DNA of 37,505 nucleotides from a virus. Taxonomy: Duplodnaviria; Heunggongvirae; Uroviricota; Caudoviricetes. Of this stretch, positions 935 through 37,505 are shown in pieces. Location of the stretch: the IMG/VR virus record IMGVR_UViG_2721755658_000003; one strand, 5' to 3'. How positions within the stretch are numbered: position 1 is the first letter of the stretch; every line of letters starts with the position of its first letter. The position numbers and the translations under genes are program-made. A model generated the notes under the pieces. That model was not told the origin of the DNA and ran no database searches. It saw only the letters and a program-made list of their open reading frames with translations.

Positions 935-2620
935 GTGAATATAAACGTCGCCGAATTGTTAAATGGGAATTACATTCTGTTATTATTTGTGGTCCTCGCG
1001 CTTGGGCTATGTCTCGGAAAGTTACGACTTGGTTCGATCCAACTGGGTAATTCCATTGGCGTTTTAGTCGTATCGCTGTTATTAGGCCAACAACATTTCA
1101 GCATTAACACCGATGCGCTTAATCTTGGCTTTATGCTGTTTATTTTCTGCGTCGGGGTCGAAGCCGGACCGAACTTTTTTTCCATTTTTTTTCGCGATGG
1201 GAAAAATTACCTAATGTTAGCACTGGTGATGGTTGGCAGTGCGCTGGTGATCGCCTTAGGGTTAGGTAAGCTGTTTGGCTGGGATATTGGCCTGACGGCC
1301 GGTATGTTAGCAGGCTCTATGACGTCGACACCGGTTCTGGTCGGTGCTGGCGATACACTGCGTCATTCCGGCATGGAAAGCAGGCAGCTCTCACTGGCAC
1401 TGGATAATCTGAGCCTCGGGTATGCCTTAACCTATTTAATCGGTCTGGTGAGTTTGATTGTTGGTGCGCGTTACTTGCCGAAATTGCAGCATCAGGACTT
1501 ACAGACCAGCGCCCAGCAAATCGCCCGCGAACGTGGCCTGGACACTGATGCCAACCGTAAGGTTTATTTACCGGTGATCCGCGCCTATCGCGTCGGCCCG
1601 GAACTGGTGGCCTGGACCGACGGCAAAAATCTGCGTGAACTGGGTATTTATCGACAAACCGGCTGCTACATTGAACGTATTCGACGTAACGGGATTCTGG
1701 CAAATCCAGACGGTGATGCCGTGCTACAAATGGGCGATGAAATAGCGTTGGTAGGCTATCCCGACGCCCATGCCCGACTCGATCCCAGCTTCCGTAACGG
1801 TAAAGAAGTTTTCGATCGTGACCTTCTCGACATGCGTATCGTCACTGAAGAAGTGGTCGTTAAAAACCATAACGCTGTAGGTAAACGTCTCGCACAACTG
1901 AAGTTGACCGATCACGGTTGCTTCCTTAACCGCGTCATTCGTAGCCAGATTGAGATGCCGATAGATGACAACGTCGTGCTTAACAAAGGTGACGTTTTAC
2001 AAGTCAGCGGCGATGCCCGCCGCGTAAAAACCATCGCCGATCGCATCGGCTTTATCTCGATTCACAGCCAGGTCACTGACCTGCTGGCATTCTGCGCCTT
2101 CTTTGTTATTGGGCTGATGATCGGGATGATCACCTTCCAGTTCAGCACATTCAGTTTCGGCATGGGGAACGCTGCCGGGTTGTTATTCGCCGGAATTATG
2201 CTGGGCTTTATGCGTGCTAACCACCCGACCTTCGGTTACATTCCGCAGGGTGCATTAAGCATGGTGAAAGAGTTCGGCTTGATGGTGTTTATGGCAGGCG
2301 TTGGTCTGAGCGCCGGTAGCGGTATTAATAACGGCCTGGGCGCGATTGGCGGTCAGATGTTGATTGCCGGATTGATTGTCAGTCTGGTGCCCGTGGTTAT
2401 CTGTTTCTTGTTCGGTGCTTATGTATTGCGAATGAACCGCGCGCTGTTGTTCGGCGCAATGATGGGCGCACGTACCTGCGCGCCGGCAATGGAGATCATC
2501 AGTGATACAGCTCGCAGTAACATCCCGGCGCTGGGCTATGCGGGCACCTATGCAATCGCCAACGTCCTGCTGACGCTGGCAGGGACAATCATCGTCATGG
2601 TATGGCCAGGATTAGGATAA
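935..2620 (+). CDS. ybjL: putative AAE-family transporter YbjL
   Basis: 561-aa ORF with hydrophobic N- and C-terminal membrane domains flanking a soluble middle; matches E. coli YbjL from memory; apparent GTG start at 935. Confidence 0.85.
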
Positions 2621-2732
2621 AACTGAAGTTGCCCTGAAAATGAAATTTTTTTGCACAACCGCAGAACTTTTCCGCAGGGCATCAGTCTTAATTAGTGCCA
2701 CTGCTTTTCTTTGATGTCCCCATTTTGTGGAG

Positions 2733-2776
2733 CCCATCAACCCCGCCATTTCGGTTCAAGGTTGATGGGTTTTTTG
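2733..2776 (+). terminator. rho-independent terminator downstream of ybjL, near the prophage junction
   Basis: Stem CCCATCAACC ... GGTTGATGGG followed by TTTTTTGTTG. Confidence 0.45.
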
Positions 2777-2855
2777 TTGCCTGAAATTTATGCCTTTTAA
2801 AATCATGATGTTAGAAGCACTGTTTTTTATCGATGGCGACAAAATGGCGGCAGCG

Positions 2856-3074
2856 TCAAAGAGAGAGCGCCACCTGTCCTGATTTCATTGGATGCGGCTG
2901 AACCGGATTTGACTCTTTTGGCGTTGCAATCGAACGAACAAAAGTTTCATGGGTAACAAAAGTATGGCTGCAGTTAATATTCTGGCACTGGTTGTAACGC
3001 TCTTTGGTCAATGAAGATACCTGAAAACTGCTGCGAGTATGGGCGGCACTTCCACACAGTGGGCAAATCATCAT
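2856..3074 (-). CDS. ogr: Ogr/B-family zinc-finger late transcription activator
   Basis: ORF with CPLCG...CQN.NC zinc-finger pattern resembling P2 Ogr; start chosen at internal Met (MMICPLCG) to give ~72 aa; start is approximate. Confidence 0.7.
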   Translation of the reverse strand: MMICPLCGSAAHTRSSFQVSSLTKERYNQCQNINCSHTFVTHETFVRSIATPKESNPVQPHPMKSGQVALSL

Positions 3075-3164
3075 TTTTCGAGTTCTCCCCATTTTTGCTA
3101 AATTCACAATAATGATACCGCATTATTCCATTTTGCAAACTTAAAAGTTCTCCATTGCGAAGAA

Positions 3165-4265
3165 TCATTCCATTTCGAAATCATCAATCCTCACTTCAAG
3201 CTCCAGACTGGTCGTAAAACCGTTATCCGGGCTGACGGTATGCGTCAGAGTCGTAATGGTCCATTCCGCATCATCTATCGGCTGTTTAAAGCCACTGACT
3301 TTCACTGGCATTTCCGTGTAGAGATCTGCCCGACCTTCCGCCAGTTGTAGCGAGAATGACGCAACGCCGCGTTGCAGGCGTTCCCACTGCATTTTCGCCG
3401 CTCGTTCGGCGTTGCTCCGGTTGGCATAAGTGCGATTAAGTACCAGCACGTTTTCATCCGTACCCACCAGGTAATCGCCCTGCTTCGCTTCCGGCTCTTT
3501 CTTCTGCTTCTTAGTCCTGCGCTTACGCTTCACCGTGGTGCTTTCTTTCTTCGAGGGTTCGCGAGTATGCAACCAGCTGGCAATTACGCCCGTGTAAGCT
3601 CCGCGATCTGCCAGGGTAAAGCGGTGACTGTCGCCGTCCTTACGTGTGATAGTGATCACCGGCAGTGGTTTACCGCTGGCACTTTTACCCTGTCCCAGTC
3701 GGATGAATAACAGATTGCCATTTTTCACTGACGCGATAGCACCGTACTGGCGCGCCAGCCGCATCAGAAAACTGCCGTCACTCTCATTAGTCTGGTCTAT
3801 ATGTTCCACGGGCTTATCCGACAGGTCTTTACCCAGTGCCATCTTCAGCTTGTGACGCGCGGCTATTTCCTTGACCACTTCCCCGACAGTGGTCTTGTGC
3901 CACGACTTTTCACGGCGGGTATTCAGCGTTTCACGAAAATCAGCACTTCGCGCCCGAATAGTCAGGCGGTCCGGTGCGCCAGTGTGTTCAATCTCGTCCA
4001 CCGTGAATGCCCCTTTCGGGAAAAGCGGCTGCCCCTTCCAGCCCAGCGCCAGCGTAATGACCGCACCACGGCGCGGCAGCACGATTTTTCCGTCAGCGTC
4101 GTCCAGCTCCAGATCAAGCTGGTCCGCTTCAAAGCCCCGGTTATCCGTCAGCGTAAGCCCCATCAGGCGGTTGTCCAGCACAGTGGTTATATCCCTGCCC
4201 TCAATACTGATGCTGAATGCGGGAGTTTTGTTGCCTTTGTTAAGCAGTTCAGAGCTGAAATTCAC
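3165..4265 (-). CDS. tail protein D (late control gene D)
   Basis: 366-aa ORF at the P2 gene D position downstream of U; size and position consistent. Confidence 0.8.
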   Translation of the reverse strand: MNFSSELLNKGNKTPAFSISIEGRDITTVLDNRLMGLTLTDNRGFEADQLDLELDDADGKIVLPRRGAVITLALGWKGQPLFPKGAFTVDEIEHTGAPDRLTIRARSADFRETLNTRREKSWHKTTVGEVVKEIAARHKLKMALGKDLSDKPVEHIDQTNESDGSFLMRLARQYGAIASVKNGNLLFIRLGQGKSASGKPLPVITITRKDGDSHRFTLADRGAYTGVIASWLHTREPSKKESTTVKRKRRTKKQKKEPEAKQGDYLVGTDENVLVLNRTYANRSNAERAAKMQWERLQRGVASFSLQLAEGRADLYTEMPVKVSGFKQPIDDAEWTITTLTHTVSPDNGFTTSLELEVRIDDFEME

Positions 4266-4747
4266 GACAGCAGCCCTCCCACCGTTTTACTGATATCGCT
4301 TAAAGCAGATGTTGCCGTTTCCTGCAGATTATTCAGTTGCGCACTGAGATCACCGAACATATCGGACAGGGATTCATCCACCCGTTTGAGCGACAGGGTG
4401 AACTCAATCCGGCGCGGCATACCGTCGCGGAAAAACTCCGTTTTAGTCTGATTCAGTCCCTCAATCACATACATGCCGTAAATCGTGCCGCTGCCTTCAA
4501 TCAGGGGCCATGCTTTCCCCTGTTCTGCCATCTGCTCCAGTGCCAGCAACGACAGCCTGCCGCCTGTTATCTCCGGCATAAGAACACCGGAAAGCGTCAG
4601 CATGTCGTTTTCCGGTCCCAGAAACTGCGTGGACGGACGTCGGTTTACCCGGCTGTTTGCCGCATGTCGCCAGCTGCGTTGATACTGCAGTTCCTGATAC
4701 GGCACGGTGCGCAGCATAAACACGTACAATCCTAGCACCATCATCAT
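4262..4747 (-). CDS. tail protein U
   Basis: 161-aa ORF with 4-nt overlap to D, immediately downstream of the tape measure gene, as in P2. Confidence 0.75.
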   Translation of the reverse strand: MMMVLGLYVFMLRTVPYQELQYQRSWRHAANSRVNRRPSTQFLGPENDMLTLSGVLMPEITGGRLSLLALEQMAEQGKAWPLIEGSGTIYGMYVIEGLNQTKTEFFRDGMPRRIEFTLSLKRVDESLSDMFGDLSAQLNNLQETATSALSDISKTVGGLLS

Positions 4748-16384: not shown

Positions 16385-16418
16385 TTGACACAAAAGATGT
16401 TTATTGACAATATATAAG
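16385..16418 (+). promoter_or_regulatory. putative sigma70 promoter of the accessory gene
   Basis: TTGACA at 16385-16390 and a second TTGACA at 16404-16409 followed by TATATAAG; AT-rich region just upstream of the RBS AGGAG (16431-16435). Confidence 0.35.
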
Positions 16419-16442
16419 TTCAATCTAACAAGGAGAAAAATT

Positions 16443-18218
16443 ATGCCAAATGAAAATCTTGATATTGACTCAAGGACTACCGAGCAATTATACGAATGGT
16501 ATTTGCAAGGAAATTTGATAGTCAATAGACGTTATCAAAGGAAACTTGTATGGTCTCTAGAAGAAAAGACTTCTTTAATATCTTCTATGCTGCAACAATA
16601 TCCTATTCCGTTATTATTATTTGTTACCATCAATGAACAAAGAGAAATATTGGATGGAATGCAAAGATTAGAAGCAATTATGAGCTTCATCGAACAGAGA
16701 TTTTCATTAGATGGACAATATTTTGATTTGGACTCTATAGCTTTAACAAAACAACTTAAAGATAATGGAACTTTAATTCAGAAAGAACCAATCCTTTCCC
16801 GTGATTCTTCAGCAATTATTGCACGTTATCGATTTGCAATATCAGAATATAGCTCCACAAATGAAAATATTGACGAAGTATTCAGACGAATAAACTCAAA
16901 CGGGAAGATTTTATCCAAACAAGAATTACGTAGTGCAGGAACAGTTAGTAACTTCTCTGAACTGGTCAGATCGATATCAACATCGATCAGAGGTGATACT
17001 AGCCATTCTGACATTATGAATCTCCAGCAAATGCACAAAATTTCAATCAGTAACGATAGATTGGAGTACGGGGTAAATATCGATAACCACTTTTATATAA
17101 AACATCATATTTTAACAAGACGAAGTATTCGTGATTCTGATGACGAGGAATTGATAGCCAATATCCTTGCATATATCAGTCTAGAAGAAAAACCCACATC
17201 TGGGTCAACTTCTCTCGACACATTCTATGGTCAAGGAAACTCCTCTCATGCTCATGGTGTCAGACAGCAATTAGAGTCTTTCATTCAAACCAATAACGCT
17301 GCCACTATTAAGCAGAATTTCATAGCTGTATATGAATTAATTACAAGCCTATATGACGGAAAAAATGATACTTTTAGAAGCCATATTTTAGGGGAGGATA
17401 ATTCATCTCAAGAATGCCCTCGTTATTATCAAGCTGTGTTTTTGTCTATTTATGAACTTCTTTTCAACCAAAATATGCAATTAATTGATAAAGAAGGTTT
17501 ATTCTCGCAATTAAAAAACACTGGCAATACCATAATTATGGTTACCGATGGTGGCCGCTGGGCTGCAAGCACTCGTGAAAAAAGTGTTAATGATCTTGTT
17601 GCATTAATAAGTCGTTACTTCCAACCTGCTCCTCAAAAGTATGTGAATCATGCTTGGGTAACTGAAATTCGCAATCTATTAACAAATTCTAGAACTGAAC
17701 AACCAAGTTATGATTTCAAACAAGGGTTCTTTAATTTATCAGGTAAAAATGAATTTGATGATGAATGTTTAAAAGGAATATTACAAACTTGCGTAGCAAT
17801 AAATAATATTGGAAAAAGCGCAAAAGGCTATATTTTAGTTGGTATTGCCGAAAATAAATTAACCGCAGATAGAATTCAACATTTATATGGAGTAAATTCA
17901 ATTGAGTTCAATGGGTTCTATATAAACGGAATTGATCATGAAGCAATGTTAGTCTCTGGTAGCATTGATGATTACTTTATGTTAATAAAACAAAAAATAC
18001 AAGGATACAATTTCACTGAAACTCTAAAACAGCAGATACTTAAGAATATTGAGTTTTGCTCTTACAATGGCTTACACATACTCAAGATAACTATTCAGAG
18101 CACAGGTCAAATTTGCGACTTTGAGAATATGTTTTATATCAGACAAGGCTCATCGACTGATCCAGTTACGGATACACAAAACATCTCAGCTCTATTTAAC
18201 TCTTACATGAACAGCTAA
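16443..18218 (+). CDS. accessory protein: DUF262 (ParB-like/GmrS N-terminal) domain fused to an AlbA_2/Schlafen-like C-terminal domain; candidate anti-phage defence protein
   Basis: ATG at 16443 with SD AGGAG 7 nt upstream (ORF track uses an upstream TTG at 16404); N-terminal motif RRYQRKLVWSLEEK...DGMQRLEAI typical of DUF262; C-terminal DFKQG...ILQTCVAINNIGKSAKGYILVGIAENK resembles the AlbA_2 core; AT-rich, opposite strand to flanking tail genes. Confidence 0.7.
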   Translation: MPNENLDIDSRTTEQLYEWYLQGNLIVNRRYQRKLVWSLEEKTSLISSMLQQYPIPLLLFVTINEQREILDGMQRLEAIMSFIEQRFSLDGQYFDLDSIALTKQLKDNGTLIQKEPILSRDSSAIIARYRFAISEYSSTNENIDEVFRRINSNGKILSKQELRSAGTVSNFSELVRSISTSIRGDTSHSDIMNLQQMHKISISNDRLEYGVNIDNHFYIKHHILTRRSIRDSDDEELIANILAYISLEEKPTSGSTSLDTFYGQGNSSHAHGVRQQLESFIQTNNAATIKQNFIAVYELITSLYDGKNDTFRSHILGEDNSSQECPRYYQAVFLSIYELLFNQNMQLIDKEGLFSQLKNTGNTIIMVTDGGRWAASTREKSVNDLVALISRYFQPAPQKYVNHAWVTEIRNLLTNSRTEQPSYDFKQGFFNLSGKNEFDDECLKGILQTCVAINNIGKSAKGYILVGIAENKLTADRIQHLYGVNSIEFNGFYINGIDHEAMLVSGSIDDYFMLIKQKIQGYNFTETLKQQILKNIEFCSYNGLHILKITIQSTGQICDFENMFYIRQGSSTDPVTDTQNISALFNSYMNS

Positions 18219-27072: not shown

Positions 27073-28512
27073 TCATTTTATAGAATCAAGGTTATCGGCG
27101 TTCATCATACTTTCAAAACCAGTTCCCATACGTCCATATCTAACCCCTGAATTATGCATACTCTGAGCGCCGGCCTTAACCTTCAATTTGATCTCTTGCG
27201 CTGACGCTATCCCAGCAATCATTGCTAAATATTCAAAATACTTATGCTGTGTCGCTCTTAAAAATAGTTCAGGTCTATAATTATAACTCGCATAATAAAT
27301 AGTGCATGGATACCAATAGACACCATCATTACAAAATGAATAAAAAAGAACTAGCACATCAGCCTGCATAAGATCAGAAAAGGTAATATCTTCCCTATCT
27401 GCATTTCTTTTAATTAGCTCTGCAACTGGAGAGTAATACCTTATATCTTCTTCAAAACCTGCCTGTAGCGTTTCAGAATCAGCTAAGAAAGCGCTAATTG
27501 ACACGAGTCTATGTTCCGGTGGTAACTGCCTATCACCAGAAAGGAATCTGGCAGATAAAATCGCACGTACTAATTGAAACTTCTCTAATCTAATCAATAT
27601 AGCAACTGAATATAAGAAAATTTCGTATGCAAATACCTTTTGTGCATCATACCAGTTTAATTGCCATGAACTGACATCGCTAGGAGCTTCGGTTAGTAAC
27701 AGAACTTTTTCAAAGAACTTTACTAGTTCTGTTGAAAATTCATCCTGCATCGTAAACTCTGCCTCAAGAGTTATCCATTCACACACATAATCCCTGATAG
27801 GCTTCATGGCAGCAACGTCGCTAATTATTTTCCTACCCATGCTTTGCAAATCATTTTGCTCTGGGCGAGCTCGGATTCTCATCCCGTCAAGGTACTTGAC
27901 TACTGAATCAACGAAATCACGCCGATAATAACTAACACCTGCCCTATTTTGCAAAACAGCTTGTTTCAAGCTATTAAATTTTGCGTGTGGTTCACTCACC
28001 GGATCATATTGCCCACTATCTAAATAACTGGGTCTTTTTCCAAGCTTAGGTTTTATATCTGCTGGTTTTCCATTAAGCAGCCTTACTAACCGTTCCCAAT
28101 TTTGATTTTCTTTTTCTGGTGTTGAAAGGTCAATCCATATTAACGAACTCATAAAAACAGGAAGACAAGGTTCTGAATTCTCATCAAATTCACAAACAAT
28201 AGGTATAAATTTTGATTGTTCGACTTTTGTGTAGACTTGTTGAGAGATGATCTGGGATTCTGTGCCAACCCCACTTTGTTTGTTATCAGCTTTTTTTGCG
28301 TAAACTGAATCACACATCACAAGCACATTGGTGATACTTTTATCAACAATCATTTTTTCCATGAATGCGTTTTTATCATTGCCCTCCTTCAAATCATATA
28401 TGTCAATGACAACATCCACTCCATCACTCAAAAGTCTATCAGCTATTGCTTTAACTCTTTCCTTATGAGCTGGGCTACTCCAACTATATGATATAAAAAC
28501 TTTTGGCGTCAT
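27073..28512 (-). CDS. accessory protein with N-terminal SEFIR/TIR-like domain and uncharacterised C-terminal region; candidate defence protein
   Basis: N-terminus MTPKVFISYSWSSPAHKERVKAIADRLLSDGVDVVIDIYDL matches the SEFIR/TIR_2 signature; AT-rich; lies between cos and the portal gene. Confidence 0.65.
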   Translation of the reverse strand: MTPKVFISYSWSSPAHKERVKAIADRLLSDGVDVVIDIYDLKEGNDKNAFMEKMIVDKSITNVLVMCDSVYAKKADNKQSGVGTESQIISQQVYTKVEQSKFIPIVCEFDENSEPCLPVFMSSLIWIDLSTPEKENQNWERLVRLLNGKPADIKPKLGKRPSYLDSGQYDPVSEPHAKFNSLKQAVLQNRAGVSYYRRDFVDSVVKYLDGMRIRARPEQNDLQSMGRKIISDVAAMKPIRDYVCEWITLEAEFTMQDEFSTELVKFFEKVLLLTEAPSDVSSWQLNWYDAQKVFAYEIFLYSVAILIRLEKFQLVRAILSARFLSGDRQLPPEHRLVSISAFLADSETLQAGFEEDIRYYSPVAELIKRNADREDITFSDLMQADVLVLFYSFCNDGVYWYPCTIYYASYNYRPELFLRATQHKYFEYLAMIAGIASAQEIKLKVKAGAQSMHNSGVRYGRMGTGFESMMNADNLDSIK

Positions 28513-28915: not shown

Positions 28916-29593
28916 CTAGAACGTGACAGCCTTGTCAAAGCCAGAAATAATTGTATAAGAAATAGACGAGTTATCAGCCTTGTTCACTTTGAACTTGGCA
29001 CCTTTGTAAGCGATAACGTCACTTCCCTTAGAATCTACAGAAAAATCTGTTGTAAATGCTGCACGAGCCATATCGTTTGCAAATTCACGATAGGTGAACT
29101 TCATTACACCGCCTGCATTTCCATTGTATTCGATAGTCTTAACCAATGAGTTACTAACTCGACACAGCCCATCAGGAACACGTTTGATAGAAATTTCTGA
29201 TGCAGTATAAGAAGTACCATTTGGCGGTGATATCTCATTTTTTGCAGCATCGTAACTAACATAATCAACATAGTTACCGATTTGCCCATAGAGATTTTTT
29301 AACGCAACAGCTTGAGGGTTATGATAATTGCGGTAAATTCCATTCCCCTCACTGCAATATGTACCAGCAGCGATAGAAGACAATGCACCATTAGCCGCAC
29401 CAAGTTCTAGTACGTCCGTTTTAAATCCAGTAGCAGATGTGATAATGGGATCGCCCATGTAGGCGGTAGCACTTTGCCCAATAGCAGGCTTCACCACTTC
29501 AATAGCAGTGATATTTCGGTTAGAAGCATGTGGCACGCAACCAGTTAGGATTACAGCAAGAGATATTGGTAACGCTACATTATTAATTTTCAT
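28916..29593 (-). CDS. accessory lipoprotein of unknown function
   Basis: Start at MKINNVALPISLAVILTGC (ATG 29593) giving signal peptide plus lipobox LTGC; C-terminal aromatic residue; AT-rich. Confidence 0.6.
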   Translation of the reverse strand: MKINNVALPISLAVILTGCVPHASNRNITAIEVVKPAIGQSATAYMGDPIITSATGFKTDVLELGAANGALSSIAAGTYCSEGNGIYRNYHNPQAVALKNLYGQIGNYVDYVSYDAAKNEISPPNGTSYTASEISIKRVPDGLCRVSNSLVKTIEYNGNAGGVMKFTYREFANDMARAAFTTDFSVDSKGSDVIAYKGAKFKVNKADNSSISYTIISGFDKAVTF

Positions 29594-29616
29594 TTTTAGC
29601 CTATTATTCTTTTCTT

Positions 29617-29651
29617 GACAAAAAACAAGGCGATATCTGATTGACATCGCC
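29617..29651 (-). terminator. rho-independent terminator after the DinI-like gene
   Basis: Minus-strand hairpin GGCGATGTC...GATATCGCC followed by TTGTTTTTTG. Confidence 0.45.
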
Positions 29652-30292: not shown

Positions 30293-32707
30293 TTAATACA
30301 GGTTCCGCCACTTATCATCTTCCTGCAAACGCTGGTTCCGATAGAAGATACGCAGGCCTGCTCCTGACGGAATACTGCCGCCGCGAAGGAGTAAATCGAC
30401 CTCTTTCTCGCTGCCATCAAATCCTCTGGATTTCAGTTCATAGACGAGCTGCTGTCGTTGATGGTCTGTAATTCGCTGTTTGTAGTCTCTACGCCGTTTC
30501 GGTTTCACCAGACGTAACCTTGCAGCCAGTTCCCGGCGCTCCTTTTTGTTCATACTGTGCAGGTAATCGTGCAACACCTTGTCATCCATGCGGGTAATGT
30601 CCGTTCTGGGGTCCCCATCAGCTGATTTATCTTTCTCCTGTTGGTTCAAATTTTCAGCAAGGGGACAGTTATTGCCACGAGTCCAAGGGGCGCAAGCGCC
30701 CTGGTCGGCTGCCGCCTCCTGAACGTCAACGGCTTTACGAACCATTTTCCACTTCACTGCATGAGTGCAGATCTTGCCCTCTGCAATGGGTGACCAGATG
30801 CCATAAATACGAATGCCGTGATCGCCATAGGCGGTCGGCTCTTCGTTGATTTCATAAGCGGTTCTGATGAGGTGATATTTACGGGGAACCAGTACGCCGC
30901 CCTGCTTCATGATGTAGGTGGCAAAACAACCAGCATCAGCAGCAGCCAGGATGGCATCAAGGCGCGGGTTATCCAGTACCGGCGCACCTGCTTTTTTGTC
31001 CCCCTTTTGCCTTGCCGCCTGACCAGCCAGCAATCGCAGTTCACGGTAAGCCTGACGCCCCGGAATGCCAAAGAAGCGGAATTGCTGAACACGATGCAGA
31101 GACGCCCAGGCATTCACGTATTCAGCGTTATCACGCAGAGATTTACCCGTTTCCTTGCTGATCTCGCCAGCCAGACCACGCCCGTCAATGTTCTTACTGA
31201 TGTATTTCGCTATGTAGCTTGTCGGCGTTCCTTTGCGCGGGTTAATCAGCTCAGACTTAAAGCGCGGCCCCGTGTTATTGCCCAGCTCCTCGCGGTCTTC
31301 ACGGATAGCAAACTTACGCAACAATGCTGTAATGGCGCGGCGGTCTTTTTTGCGCATGAAACACAACAGGTGCCAGTGAACGGTGCCGTCGTGATGCGGC
31401 TCAGCCACCCGCACGCCATACCAGCGCAACCCGGCTTTGTGCATCGCCTTACGAAATGCAGCAAACATACCGACCAGATAATCGCTGCTTTGTCTTACCG
31501 TCGCATTTGTCCAGATCGGGTTGGGCCTGCCGTTATTTAGCGTGGAATGGAAACGTGACGGACAGGTGATGGTGTAGAAAACGGCGCAGTCACCGCGCAT
31601 TTCCGCGATAAGCTCCAGACCTTTAACACAGGCCATCATCTCATTGCGGCGATGCGCAGGGTTGCTGCTGCTGGCGTTTACCACATCCTCCATGTCTAGC
31701 GTGTCGCCGTCTTCGTTCACCAGTTCATGAGAACGGAAAAACTCCAGCGACTTACGGCGCTGCTCACGTTTATGCAACACGGCTTCATAGCTGACATAGG
31801 GAGATGCTTTTTTGCTGACAAGGCAGACAGCACGCAACTGCTCTTCCCGCCATTCGCAACGCATCTTCCATAATTTCCGATACCACCAGTCGGCGCACAA
31901 CATACGCGCCAGCGAACCCGGAATGAGTTCATAGGGCACGGGTTTACGGCGGTTTCTTTTCCGACGGAGTTGCTCAAACGCAGGCGGGATGACATCCAGA
32001 CGCAGGGTTTCCGCTGCCACCCTTTCCCATGTATTGCGGATTTCTTCTGGCTTAACGTCATCGGTGGCATACAAATCGCCACAAGCGGCATCAAGGCACA
32101 TACTCATATGCGCAGCTACCAGGGTGGACAGGCGTTTCACCTGATCCTGACTCATTTCAGGCAGGATCAGCAGGCCGTCCAGCCCTTCATGGCTTGCCAT
32201 AAAGCGAAAAGATGCAGATAGCTGACTGTCGCGTACATGCTCCAGTCGTTCCAGACATGGCTTAATCGTCTCACGTAAATAGCGGGAATAAGCCTTTGGC
32301 CTGCCCAGGCTGCTGAAGTATTCAATACGTTGCATCAGCGGCTTGCTGATATGGGAAGGCTGGGCGTTGACGTCCGCCAGAATGACCATATCCGGATTAA
32401 AACGCTGCTGCTCATGCGCCAGCTTTGCCCGACTAATGAGCTTATCCTGTTCCATTTCGCGCTGGACAGGATCACGGGATTCATTAAAGAAATAACGCTC
32501 CCAGACCTGATCACTCAGCGCCTCACGGCGCAGCTGTTCCTGCTCGTTATCGGCAGCGTACAGAGTGATCAGGTTTGAAAGCGTAGAAACCGGCGCAACT
32601 TCCGCCGGGTCCAGATAAGGGTTAATGGCCTTTTTCGAGCTGTTCCATGAGAACGATGCGGCAGCTTCGTTAAAGCCGCAGCAGTTGTTCATATCGGCAT
32701 GACTCAT
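30293..32707 (-). CDS. replication initiation endonuclease (gpA-like, rolling-circle initiator)
   Basis: 804-aa ORF with [15 protein letters not shown] motif typical of P2 A-family initiators. Confidence 0.85.
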
Positions 32708-34598: not shown

Positions 34599-35108
34599 TC
34601 ACAGCAAACCAAATGAAGCACCGAGGCCAGTCACGGTATCAACTGCACTCGCCATCGCAGGATTAGCCTGTAAACGGGCCTGCAATGAAACAGCCGCCAG
34701 CGCCATCAGTCGTGTTACAGAGTTAATGCTGCTGATAGCATCACGACGACCGGCACAGGTTTTTACATCGCCAGACACCGCACCTGCAGCAACACGCCCG
34801 ATCTCTGCGGTTGCACTCATGACGTAATGTGGCAGTTTCTCTTTTGCCACCTCATTAATCGGTACACATGGCAGACAATGAATCTGTGCCAGAAAACCAT
34901 CTACCAGCGTTGAATCTTCAGTCAGATCGGTAAGCAGCCAGATTTCTGGTGCGGTTAATAAATGAGGCTGAGCTGGGTTCAGCTTGTTCCGCAGAATCTG
35001 CACATTCATGCCTGCACGTTCTGCCAGTTGCACCAGATTGTGGCGCAGTGCAAATGCACGACAGGCTTCATCAAAATGTGGATGTTTGGAAACTTGGTAA
35101 TCAAACAT
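34599..35108 (-). CDS. cII: CII-like transcriptional activator (phage 186 CII type)
   Basis: Near-identical to 186 CII as recalled ([11 protein letters not shown]...AGMNVQ.LRNKLNP...[25 protein letters not shown]...GASFGL). Confidence 0.85.
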
Positions 35109-35140
35109 GGTCAATGCCTCTGATGTATTTCAGAATCGAA

Positions 35141-35362
35141 CTAATTAAGGTTTAGATTGCATTCTGAAAGCGCATCAACGGTCATTGCTGCTATGTTGAT
35201 CATCACTTTTTCGCGTTTTTTATCTTTGCGCAGACGGTGACGGATAAGGCGTCCATCAGCCAACATGTCATTGATGGTATCGATGGATAGCCCTGTCAGC
35301 TCGCTATAGCGTTCAATAGTCACATGAGGCGTGGTAAGAGTGATTGAAATGTTAGGTCTCAT
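35141..35362 (-). CDS. apl: Apl/Cox-like excisionase and transcriptional regulator
   Basis: 73-aa ORF, first gene of the early operon divergent from cI; HTH-like [18 protein letters not shown]. Confidence 0.65.
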
Positions 35363-35434
35363 GATGCAACATTCCTCGTTTAATGATGATTAATCAGGAC
35401 GAATACGGATCGTTTGTATTTTGTGAACACCATA

Positions 35435-35463
35435 AACATACGATCGCACGGTGAAATCGTCAA
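35435..35463 (-). promoter_or_regulatory. candidate early lytic promoter (pR-like) in the immunity switch region
   Basis: Minus-strand -35 TTGACG, 17-bp spacer, -10 TATGTT, about 65 bp upstream of the apl start. Confidence 0.4.
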
Positions 35464-35487
35464 GATAAAAGTTCACTTGGAGTGACC

Positions 35488-36057
35488 ATGAATTTGGAGA
35501 AAGGCGGACGAGGCGCCATAGAGCGCATGGTAGAAGCTTATGGATTCAAGACTCGACAGGCGTTGTGCGATCATTTAGGAATCTCTAAAAGTACACTCGC
35601 CACACGCTACATGCGTGACTCATTCCCAGCAGAATGGGTAATCCAGTGCGCCCTTGAAACAGGCACCTCGCTTAATTGGCTCACAACCGGGCATGGTTCA
35701 AAGCAAACTTCAGGTAATACAAATACTATGGAAGTTGCTAAATATGTATTATCTGATGGGGCCTTGTGTGAAGACGGTTTTTATATTTTCGATAGAGAAT
35801 TTCTACCGTCGGCATTCAAGAATCTTTTTGTAATCACAGATAATAATTCTGAATTTATTTGTGATAAGGAATTTGATGATATACGTGATGGTAAATGGGT
35901 AATAAGTATTGATGGCGAAATAACGATCCGTGACATTACTCGTTTACCCGGTGGAAGAATCTTCGTCGAGGGTGGAAACAGAGCCTTTGAATGTAAGATA
36001 GAAGACATTGAAATAATTGGTAAAATTATAAGTTTAACAGTCAAGTATGTTAAATAG
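35488..36057 (+). CDS. cI: CI immunity repressor (phage 186 CI type)
   Basis: ATG at 35488 with SD GGAG 5 nt upstream (ORF track uses GTG at 35482); resembles 186 CI (EAYGF, CALETG..L.WL.TG, C-terminal RLPGG..FVEGG). Confidence 0.8.
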   Translation: MNLEKGGRGAIERMVEAYGFKTRQALCDHLGISKSTLATRYMRDSFPAEWVIQCALETGTSLNWLTTGHGSKQTSGNTNTMEVAKYVLSDGALCEDGFYIFDREFLPSAFKNLFVITDNNSEFICDKEFDDIRDGKWVISIDGEITIRDITRLPGGRIFVEGGNRAFECKIEDIEIIGKIISLTVKYVK

Positions 36058-36072
36058 TACCGGGAGGAAATT

Positions 36073-36264
36073 ATGCTTGGTAAGGTATTTTTTGTGGTTT
36101 TGTCATGTTCTTTGTTATTAAACCCACTAGCTACCTATGCTAGAAATTATCCCTGCTCAGGGAAAAAGGGAGGTGTTTCTCACTGTACCTCTGATGGCAA
36201 ATTCGTTTGCAATGATGGAACTATTAGTAAATCCAAAAAAATCTGTACTAAAAACTCACGATAA
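36073..36264 (+). CDS. small secreted cysteine-rich protein, unknown function
   Basis: 63-aa ORF with SD GGGAGG, signal-peptide-like N-terminus and four Cys in the mature part; between cI and int. Confidence 0.5.
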
Positions 36265-36403
36265 CTTTTGCTTTTATATCTGCACCTAAAATAAAAATGA
36301 GCCACAGGTTAACCGCAAAAGTTACATGATCACATAGCAAAAAGAATAGCCTACTTCATTATGGCTTCAGTGAGATGTATGGTCGCAGGATTTCATACAT
36401 TGA

Positions 36404-36423
36404 CACTGGTTATACATACAGTA
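36404..36423. promoter_or_regulatory. LexA-box-like motif upstream of int
   Basis: CACTGGTTATACATACAGTA, a CTGG-N8-ACAG with one core mismatch; 18 of 20 positions identical to the reverse complement of 30166-30185. Confidence 0.3.
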
Positions 36424-36452
36424 AAAATGCTCTCTATTGGAGGGCATTTTTT

Positions 36453-37505
36453 ATGGCTGTACGAAAACTCACCACAGGAAAATGGCTTTGCGAATGTTAC
36501 CCCGCCGGACGTAGTGGGCGTCGTGTGCGTAAACAATTCGCCACCAAAGGCGAAGCACTGGCTTTTGAGCGTCACACGATGGAAGAAACCGAAGCAAAGC
36601 CCTGGCTAGGTGAATCAGTGGATCGTCGAACACTGAAAGACGTGGTTGAGCTATGGTTCAAACTACATGGTAAATCACTGACTGCTGGGCAGCATGTCTA
36701 TGACAAATTGCTGCTGATGGTTGACGCTCTGGGCAATCCCCTTGCAACTGATCTAACCTCTAAAATGTTTGCCCACTATCGAGATAAACGCCTGACAGGT
36801 GAGATCTACTTCAGCGAGAAATGGAAGAAAGGAGCAAGCCCGGTCACCATTAACCTGGAGCAAAGCTATCTAAGTAGTGTTTTTAGCGAACTATCCCGCC
36901 TGGGCGAATGGTCGTATCCGAACCCACTGGAGAACATGCGAAAATTCACCATCGCAGAAAAAGAGATGGCATGGCTTACCCATGAGCAGATTGTTGAATT
37001 ACTGGCTGATTGCAAACGTCAGGACCCAATTCTGGCACTGGTAGTTAAGATATGCTTAAGCACAGGCGCACGCTGGCGAGAAGCCGTAAATCTTACTCGT
37101 TCACAGGTGACCAAATACCGAATTACCTTTGTAAGAACGAAGGGGAAGAAAAACAGAAGCATCCCTATCAGTAAAGAGCTTTACGAAGAGATCATGGCGC
37201 TTGATGGGTTCAATTTCTTCACAGACTGCTATTTTCAATTTTTATCCGTGATGGAAAAAACGTCTATCGTGCTCCCTCGCGGTCAACTCACACACGTTCT
37301 GCGCCATACGTTTGCGGCGCACTTCATGATGTCGGGTGGAAACATTCTGGCCTTACAAAAAATTCTCGGACACCACGATATAAAAATGACTATGCGTTAC
37401 GCACATCTGGCACCGGATCATCTGGAAACGGCGCTCCGTTTCAATCCTCTGGCAACGCTGCCAAGTGGCGACAAAGTGGCGGCAGCGGTTGGCATTACCC
37501 CGTAA
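36453..37505 (+). CDS. int: tyrosine integrase (P2 Int family)
   Basis: Start at MAVRKLTTGKW; conserved CLSTGARWREA and HVLRHTFAAHFMMSGG...Y motifs as in P2 Int; stop codon is the last three bases of the window. Confidence 0.85.
   Translation: MAVRKLTTGKWLCECYPAGRSGRRVRKQFATKGEALAFERHTMEETEAKPWLGESVDRRTLKDVVELWFKLHGKSLTAGQHVYDKLLLMVDALGNPLATDLTSKMFAHYRDKRLTGEIYFSEKWKKGASPVTINLEQSYLSSVFSELSRLGEWSYPNPLENMRKFTIAEKEMAWLTHEQIVELLADCKRQDPILALVVKICLSTGARWREAVNLTRSQVTKYRITFVRTKGKKNRSIPISKELYEEIMALDGFNFFTDCYFQFLSVMEKTSIVLPRGQLTHVLRHTFAAHFMMSGGNILALQKILGHHDIKMTMRYAHLAPDHLETALRFNPLATLPSGDKVAAAVGITP

Follow-up and report, generated by a model that had tools for sequence, protein, structure and literature searches.

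The Escherichia coli YdcA protein (b1419) is a predicted periplasmic protein of 57 amino acids, encoded on the chromosome between cybB and hokB; the K-12 protein has been described as having a signal sequence and an unknown function. E. coli W became sensitive to 300 mM 3-hydroxypropionate when its chromosomal ydcA was deleted, and the gene was reportedly induced at pH 5 under YdcI (PMC7642389). No functional study was found in the literature on YdcA, its accession numbers, or the corresponding Pfam family, PF27300, and the ydcA genes of a gonococcal island, F-type plasmids, and Bacillus were set aside as being named by position or unrelated. In Vibrio K139-like phages, which are P2-related, the interval between the repressor gene cI and the integrase gene int is a hotspot of antiviral systems (PMC9122126), and according to a 2026 census the integrase-primase interval accounts for 8% of the defence systems carried by P2-like prophages (PMC13586616). 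The focus of this study was a small open reading frame (ORF) between cI and int (36073-36264, + strand) in the 37,505-nucleotide stretch of caudoviricete DNA recorded as IMGVR_UViG_2721755658_000003, referred to as the window. This ORF is virtually certain to be a real YdcA family gene, and its product is a prophage-borne paralogue of E. coli YdcA. A preliminary description of the same DNA had pointed to a small secreted cysteine-rich protein at this position, and did not recognize its membership in a known family.

Family membership was clear: 114.6 bits against NCBIfam model NF007463 (YdcA group; cut-off 93, E=1.3e-33). The sister models NF007462 and NF007464 also matched, below their cut-offs (68.5 bits versus 118 for NF007462). 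The protein matched phrog_6000 (PHROG 6000) with E=3.1e-34, and its identical protein cluster, with 355 members on at least 1,000 contigs, carries the precomputed Pfam assignment PF27300; a Pfam scan of the ORF gave only a sub-threshold match to GULLO2, the Pfam copy used being older than PF27300. With a 211-base query, the region was matched in 647 of 5,426 complete E. coli genomes, including those of BL21, E. coli B, and ATCC 8739, in which the matched gene is named "hypothetical protein" or "YdcA family protein" by RefSeq/PGAP; the weakest E. coli matches were chromosomal ydcA between cybB and hokB, annotated as "periplasmic protein". A family profile (E<=1e-3) recovered 465 clusters at 50% identity among 1.8 billion representatives, and most members in 80 species-representative loci were chromosomal and outside prophages. 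The YdcA family is therefore already catalogued, and what is added here is the analysis of the cI-int slot, the synteny with Haemophilus phage HP2, the nuclease fusions, and the link to Legionella Dis2. As it stands, the ORF encodes a catalogued protein of unassigned function, and the finding is modest.

The ORF starts with ATG 15 nt downstream of the TAG stop of cI (36055-36057) and encodes 63 amino acids; a strong Shine-Dalgarno sequence, GGGAGG, lies 5 nt before the start codon (36062-36067, + strand), both being read directly. The earlier claim of a 63-amino acid ORF with a good ribosome-binding site right behind cI was thus borne out, the sequence being identical to that quoted. Residues 1-23 (36073-36141, + strand) have the layout of a signal peptide with n-, h-, and c-regions: one lysine (Lys4), a hydrophobic stretch from residue 5 to 19, and Thr-Tyr-Ala before Arg24. 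In the family alignment, the hydrophobic N-termini were variable but Ala23 was invariant and preceded by small residues (ADA, AMA, SYA, SFA, and AQA). From sequence and modelling, a Sec-type signal peptide with cleavage by signal peptidase I after Ala23 is predicted. The remainder (36142-36264, + strand) codes for the mature 40-residue YdcA domain, as delimited by the family alignment and AlphaFold2, and the stop codon. Its four cysteines (C28, C38, C46, and C58) were invariant, with a spacing of C-x9-C-x7-C-x11-C (C-x9-C-x(6-7)-C-x11-C in the family). Among 30-33 aligned sequences, the invariant residues were P27, C28, S29, K32, G33, G34, C38, F44, C46, D48, G49, S52, S54, K55, and C58, and the family motifs PCSGxKGG and F(V/I)CxDG(S/T)xSxSK were both present. 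The mature 40-mer was lysine-rich and basic: nine K/R versus two D/E, a net charge of +7, and a pI of 9.7; positive charge was also general in the family (median +4 over 194 extracted domains, positive in 182). AlphaFold2, with an alignment of 30 sequences, gave a helix at residues 3-15 and folded the mature part as a small beta-hairpin domain (strands 35-38 and 44-46), with block pLDDT values of 90, 92, and 84. It is very probable from these features that the protein is periplasmic and disulfide-bonded.

A fifth cysteine, C12, falls within the signal peptide, and a lipoprotein lipidated at this residue (VVLSC) and anchored in the membrane like the Cor/Llp exclusion lipoproteins was also considered. 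V-L-S before Cys12 loosely fits a lipobox, and one UniRef entry from a Yersinia relative is named "Lipoprotein". Against these points, Cys12 comes too early in the chain, just seven hydrophobic residues following Lys4; relatives have I/F/V-C or no cysteine at this position; and the Ala-x-Ala type site at residue 23 is invariant. Since Cys12 lies too early and is not conserved within the family, lipidation is exceedingly improbable and this reading was rejected.

The window allele was compared with eight other E. coli alleles. Alleles that were 91-93% identical had 10-12 synonymous versus 2-6 non-synonymous codon changes, and those at ~92-93% identity in DNA had 10-12 versus 2-4. In the full-length alleles, the non-synonymous sites were located in the signal peptide (N17S and A20T), at the first mature residue (R24K), and in the C-terminal tail (N61K); a 60-residue allele from E. 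coli JA0072 additionally had V5F, I57T, and T59I, with the stop three codons earlier. Residues 25-56 were identical in all the E. coli alleles compared. This pattern of codon changes indicates purifying selection on the mature core. Over longer distances, the 34-residue core was 70-88% identical across Escherichia, Yersinia, Buttiauxella, Haemophilus, Moraxella, and Acinetobacter, and the signal peptides were unrelated in sequence. In the prophage remnant of BL21 (NZ_CP060121, 1-6211), cII and the replication endonuclease gene are pseudogenes, while cI, the YdcA-like ORF, and int are intact. In E. coli AH21, cI and the beginning of the YdcA-like ORF were lost through an insertion of the IS5-like element ISKpn26 (locus L013, 1373-2625), leaving a truncated annotated ORF of 47 amino acids before int.

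These data bear on whether the ORF merely hitch-hikes, having no function of its own and being kept by linkage to the cI allele, or not being translated at all. The ORF does occur almost always with one cI allele family (656 genomes with the cI allele versus 626-647 with the ORF), and it lacks its own promoter or terminator. Such a passenger would hardly show strong purifying selection on the mature core, the conservation of that core from Escherichia to Haemophilus, Moraxella, and Acinetobacter, a strong Shine-Dalgarno sequence, and survival in the decayed prophage of BL21; we therefore regard hitch-hiking as very improbable. The preliminary description of a gene for a small four-cysteine protein, predicted to be exported, was sound: the product passes the family cut-off, has four invariant cysteines, and is under purifying selection.

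Homologues were also sought in other phages. A tblastn search against 50,697 phage records found them only in Moraxella, Acinetobacter, Haemophilus, and Pseudomonas phages; no Escherichia phage isolate was among the matched records, and none of the phage homologues had an annotated function. When the region was compared with phage isolates by megablast, none had this cI allele or the small ORF, and only the int leader matched, in Klebsiella phages. Haemophilus phages HP2 and S2 (Hpunavirus) have a homologous ORF of 60 amino acids, absent from the GenBank annotation, the ATG of which overlaps the cI stop (TAATG) and which is followed by orf1 and int; the start of the homologue overlaps the cI stop in the same manner in H. 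parainfluenzae prophages. In the Moraxella Mcat phages, a homologue annotated as hypothetical lies among late genes (L002, 2935-3114). Acinetobacter phage Ab11510-phi has an unannotated YdcA family ORF of 61 amino acids (L003, 2917-3102).

In the context scan of the 80 loci, in which integrase genes were called using HP2 int as the query, nine had the gene between a 186/HP1-type cI and an integrase gene: two from Escherichia, one from Buttiauxella, three from Yersinia, and three from Haemophilus/Pasteurellaceae. At least one further locus (L020) had an S24-type CI-like repressor gene immediately upstream, and the remainder were chromosomal or other phage contexts with heterogeneous neighbours. 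A conserved operon partner was sought in the 69 non-prophage loci, and none was found apart from an occasional staphylococcal nuclease-type (SNase) gene; the commonest neighbour was cytochrome b561, in five loci, which corresponds to the Escherichia cybB locus. The repeated presence in temperate phages, often right behind the repressor gene, suggests a mobile small cargo gene. Conservation across related prophages had been proposed as a check on the ORF, and the frame was kept in Escherichia, Yersinia, Buttiauxella, and Haemophilus, so that refutation by non-conservation fails.

The gap between cI and int is a variable cargo slot, which is empty or filled with defence genes in sister prophages. 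The right border of the variable segment fell at 36393-36395, ~60 bp before the int start, in four independent pairwise BLAST comparisons, and the left border lay inside cI near 35707, after the DNA-binding domain, in pairwise BLAST against other cI types. The C-terminal half of cI (from ~35710) and the small ORF are parts of a single low-GC variable cassette: the GC content was 0.32-0.36 across 35700-36400 and about 0.47-0.53 on either side. The cI allele family of the window was found in 656 genomes at >=80% coverage and the small ORF in 626-647, the two travelling together, as does an AT-rich 3' spacer (36265-36393, + strand). At 36394-36452 (+ strand), homology to prophages with other cargo resumes in a conserved int leader, which forms the right border of the slot. 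In one sister prophage (L016), the slot was empty, with int 77 bp after cI. Another (L014) and phage vB_EcoM-813R9 had a DUF4041 protein matching PD-Lambda-1 (E=1e-119), a third (L015) had a two-gene set including PDC-M11A, and Klebsiella phage 4LV2017 had a hypothetical protein of 350 amino acids. E. coli JA0072 (L012, 1514-3041) had the YdcA-like ORF of 60 amino acids, followed 14 nt later by a KAP-family NTPase of 443 amino acids, which matched PADLOC family PDC-S20 (E=2e-171), and then int. The earlier idea of a place for accessory genes expressed in lysogens was thus sound. With regard to the usual definition of a moron, a variable slot and deviant base composition among collinear phages were both found, while the classical promoter and terminator of its own were not.

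On the + strand, the promoter and terminator scan found nothing resembling a terminator from cI to int. Nor did it find a promoter-like site immediately before the small ORF, which therefore appears to depend on the cI transcript. Since a 15-nt gap and a strong Shine-Dalgarno sequence follow cI with no predicted terminator, co-expression with the repressor, as proposed in the preliminary description, is the natural reading, and we consider it likely. Transcription of cI and int in phage 186 starts from the lysogenic promoter pL. By analogy, pL is expected within 35363-35481 of the window, driving cI, the small ORF, and int. The scan found a pR-like promoter on the - strand in this switch region (35463-35435). 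An imperfect hairpin (36262-36276/36310-36324) starts at the stop of the small ORF; its stability was not significant (z = -1.65 versus shuffles) and it had no U-tract, so it was not called a terminator. A promoter-like site, TTGACA-17-AAAAAT (36400-36428, + strand), lies in the ~60-bp int leader just to the right of the cargo border, and may let int be transcribed without reliance on the cargo. Of all promoter-like matches in the region, the strongest was TTAACA-17-TATAAT (11/12; 36025-36053) on the - strand at the 3' end of cI, directed antisense into cI. An Rfam scan of 35000-37505 gave chance-level matches only.

In the explanation that we favour, the lysogenic promoter would drive the small ORF together with cI, and probably also int, so that the protein would be produced continuously in lysogens. 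The precursor of 63 amino acids would be exported by Sec and cut after Ala23, and the mature peptide of 40 amino acids would fold in the periplasm into a small beta-hairpin domain with two disulfides. The YdcA domain would be a conserved, cationic module that binds a polyanion or an envelope complex. In a lysogen, the free domain would serve in the envelope as a lysogenic-conversion factor, and would most likely interfere with the entry of foreign DNA (a superinfecting phage and, perhaps, conjugation). The whole of this explanation, namely a periplasmic binding module made by the lysogen with possible exclusion, is put forward tentatively, with somewhat less than even chances. The same grade applies to the domain itself as a binding module for DNA or another envelope polyanion, which is credible and short of probable. 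A role in exclusion or defence is rather doubtful.

The first line of evidence for binding came from longer family members. Among the 150 best clusters, 49 representatives exceeded 110 amino acids, and in six of these a low-complexity linker led to a nuclease at the C-terminus, which was of the Endonuclease_NS type in three, SNase in two, and phospholipase D (PLD)-type in one. Nuclease fusions were found in P0104, P0205, P0153, P0158, and P0169, and tandem YdcA repeats in P0064 (three copies) and in P0065 and P0066 (two each); other long members had tandem domain repeats or basic low-complexity tails, with single fusions to VasL of the type VI secretion system (T6SS) and to DUF4124. In the genomic loci, one of the 80 had a YdcA-SNase fusion (L085, 3956-4708), and an SNase gene was immediately adjacent in five: L074 (4213-4902), L087 (2963-3856), and those of three Brucella species (L026, L029, and L031, ~4020-4670). 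Since three unrelated nuclease folds share one small cationic N-terminal module, this module is suggested to bind or localize, with nucleic acid as the obvious ligand; its position at the N-terminus of these secreted nucleases and the adjoining nuclease genes make nucleic acid the leading candidate. In a stricter version, the YdcA domain would be a hitherto unrecognized module that binds nucleic acid in the periplasm or outside the cell and acts as the substrate-binding arm of secreted nucleases, and the free form, expressed by P2/186- and HP1-type prophages from the repressor transcript, would intercept or block incoming DNA in the periplasm; this version is improbable. If it were true, the domain would represent a new, very small class of factor for superinfection exclusion, anti-conjugation, or anti-transformation.

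The same fusions could instead reflect a partner or regulator of a periplasmic or secreted nuclease such as endonuclease I, which the small protein would inhibit, tether, or activate. This is what recurrent fusions to SNase, Endonuclease_NS, and PLD nucleases, together with adjacent SNase genes, might look like, but a long low-complexity linker is typical of substrate- or surface-binding modules rather than inhibitors, and one inhibitor common to three unrelated nuclease folds would be unlikely. No nuclease gene lies near the small ORF in the window. A nuclease partner is therefore decidedly improbable.

The second lead was structural. The only meaningful match of the protein in the Protein Data Bank (PDB) was Legionella Dis2 (Lpg0823; 7MUC/7MUD, chain AN), with E=3.2e-5 by phmmer and E=1.2e-4 by profile. 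The Dis2 segment CSKMGGINYC...GRLVCNNGFYS was paired with the YdcA motif, and a second, weaker repeat was present; Dis2 thus looks like a member of the YdcA domain family with two lobes. By Foldseek, Dis2 ranked first with a probability of 0.96, but with E=0.11 and a TM score of 0.41. The Dot/Icm outer-membrane cap contains Dis2 as a stoichiometric component, close to the outer membrane (PMC8486379), and since this only solved relative is a structural piece of a type IV secretion cap, an outer-membrane-proximal protein complex is the second candidate ligand. Dis2 was reported without structural relatives and carries the misleading name "Neurogenic locus notch homolog". A likeness to Pin-II proteinase inhibitors was rejected: six PDB entries had non-significant phmmer E values of 0.23-1.8, none was among the 50 best Foldseek matches listed, and the Pin-II pattern has eight cysteines against four in the small protein. 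A Foldseek search of predicted viral structures (BFVD) gave nothing below E=1.

The link to Dis2 raises another explanation, in which the small protein is a structural adaptor that docks on an outer-membrane machine (a secretin, a type IV secretion system, a pilus, or a phage receptor complex) and alters its function. Dis2, with two YdcA-like lobes and a stoichiometric place in the Dot/Icm cap, is the best PDB match by both sequence and fold, and one family member is fused to a T6SS VasL domain. Nevertheless, the similarity is marginal by Foldseek and the small protein has one lobe instead of two; no secretion-system genes lie nearby, and the family occurs in many genomes and contexts without such machines. 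We consider an adaptor of this type quite improbable.

A more serious competitor is a host-fitness (stress-tolerance) moron, which would do the same envelope job as chromosomal YdcA, such as survival of acid or organic acids, with no effect on other phages. The 3-hydroxypropionate sensitivity of the ydcA deletion and the induction at pH 5 described above (PMC7642389) fit this explanation, as do the chromosomal location of most family members and the 76% identity between the prophage and chromosomal cores. On the other side, sister prophages have anti-phage systems in this slot, a second copy is less obviously useful to strains that possess ydcA on the chromosome, and the sole published phenotype is indirect. 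A fitness role is hence somewhat unlikely, without being far-fetched.

Several observations weigh against a conversion or exclusion factor in the envelope, which we nevertheless prefer. The role, suggested also in the preliminary description, is predicted from position and sequence; the protein matched 0 PADLOC families, and chromosomal YdcA has so far been linked only to acid and 3-hydroxypropionate tolerance. Since most members are chromosomal singletons with heterogeneous neighbourhoods, the YdcA family is not intrinsically one of phage defence. The lysogenic promoter pL was not detected by the consensus promoter scan, and the hairpin after the stop of the small ORF may affect read-through into int. 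The nuclease fusions are a minority (six of 49) and could mean help with localization or secretion, not DNA binding; the fold match to Dis2 is weak (E=0.11, TM 0.41), and Dis2 is not known to bind DNA.

If the free domain did exclude phages or other incoming DNA, it would be among the smallest defence factors, present in ~12% of complete E. coli genomes, including those of BL21 and ATCC 8739. In 186-like prophages of E. coli, the interval between cI and int behaves like a third cargo/defence slot, read from the lysogenic transcript. The YdcA family gains two functional handles, the nuclease fusions and the Dis2 structure, and Dis2 appears to belong to a widespread domain family.

The surrounding genes place the ORF in a lysogeny module. 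The CI repressor gene (35482-36057, + strand), of the 186/P2 type, encodes 191 amino acids and matched Phage_CI_repr (PF07022, 2.8e-33) and Phage_CI_C (PF16452, 2.7e-27). The lysis/lysogeny switch region (35363-35481) lies between it and a Cox/Apl-like gene (35141-35362, - strand; Cox-like phrog_575), beyond which a CII-like gene (34599-35114, - strand) was identified from profile matches. The P2-type tyrosine integrase gene int (36453-37505, + strand) encodes 350 amino acids and its stop codon ends at the last base of the window; its start at 36453 follows the RefSeq placement in identical prophages, and a 376-amino acid int ORF from 36375 was therefore rejected as an over-extension. The order of cI, the small ORF, and int, with divergent Cox/Apl-like and CII-like genes, indicates a lysogeny module from a 186-like phage of the P2 group. 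At its left end (288-2620), the window holds the host chromosomal genes ybjM (PF11045) and ybjL, the latter encoding an Asp-Al_Ex/TrkA_C permease. The window is therefore not a pure phage genome, the prophage-host junction lying at ~2620 to 3165; since rcdA/ybjJ follow int in sister strains, the prophage sits between ybjL and rcdA.

Two other sites in the window carry defence-like genes. A SEFIR/TIR-domain protein of 479 amino acids (27073-28512, - strand), matching PADLOC bSEFIR with E=1.9e-104, is encoded in the classical hotspot of P2, which is flanked by the replication gene (30293-32707) on one side and the portal/terminase genes on the other, and is adjoined by an ORF of 243 amino acids without a match (28916-29647). 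A protein of 604 amino acids with GmrSD_N (DUF262-type) and Schlafen/AlbA_2 domains (16404-18218, + strand) had NsnA as its best PADLOC match (E=2.9e-23); its gene is on the opposite strand among the tail genes, at the second of the known P2 cargo sites.

Among known systems, E. coli YdcA is the closest to the small protein: both have a predicted signal peptide and one domain of ~35 amino acids with four cysteines at identical spacing, and the motif PCSGxKGG(V/I)SHC...GKF(V/I)CNDG(S/T)xSxSKKxC is common to their cores, which are 76% identical. The window copy differs in being prophage-borne behind cI, in having another predicted signal peptide, and in belonging to model NF007463 rather than NF007462. 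The ORF of HP2 and S2 also has a core 76% identical to that of the window and lies on the same strand, with a 186/HP1-type cI immediately upstream and int downstream, but HP2 has an additional exported-looking orf1 of 254 amino acids between the homologue and int, and its host belongs to another order (Pasteurellales). The gene glo of the P2-related phage K139 encodes a periplasmic protein and has been called an immunity gene (PMC4870250). Like the small ORF, it forms part of the lysogeny module in a P2-related phage, codes for a small protein of probable or known periplasmic location, and would be cargo read from the lysogenic transcript. The likeness to Glo, or to other envelope factors that lysogens express, is one of position and probable location: no sequence similarity was found between the two proteins, and K139 was not among the tblastn matches. 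The K139 Glo protein is said to function in exclusion.

Dis2, from the Dot/Icm type IVB system of Legionella pneumophila, resembles the small protein in its motif and in having a signal peptide and a disulfide-rich mini-domain, both of which are predicted for the small protein. It has two lobes and five disulfides and is a fixed structural subunit (13 copies), whereas the small protein has one domain, which is much more basic. The prophage in the window is P2/186-like and has no type IV secretion system genes, and no secretion-system genes lie near the small ORF. For small modules on secreted nucleases, we take the Excalibur calcium-binding domain as an analogy. Modules of the Excalibur type are, like the YdcA domain, short, cysteine-containing, and extracytoplasmic, and occur alone or linked to SNase-type or other secreted nucleases, but the two showed no sequence relationship in the Pfam scan.

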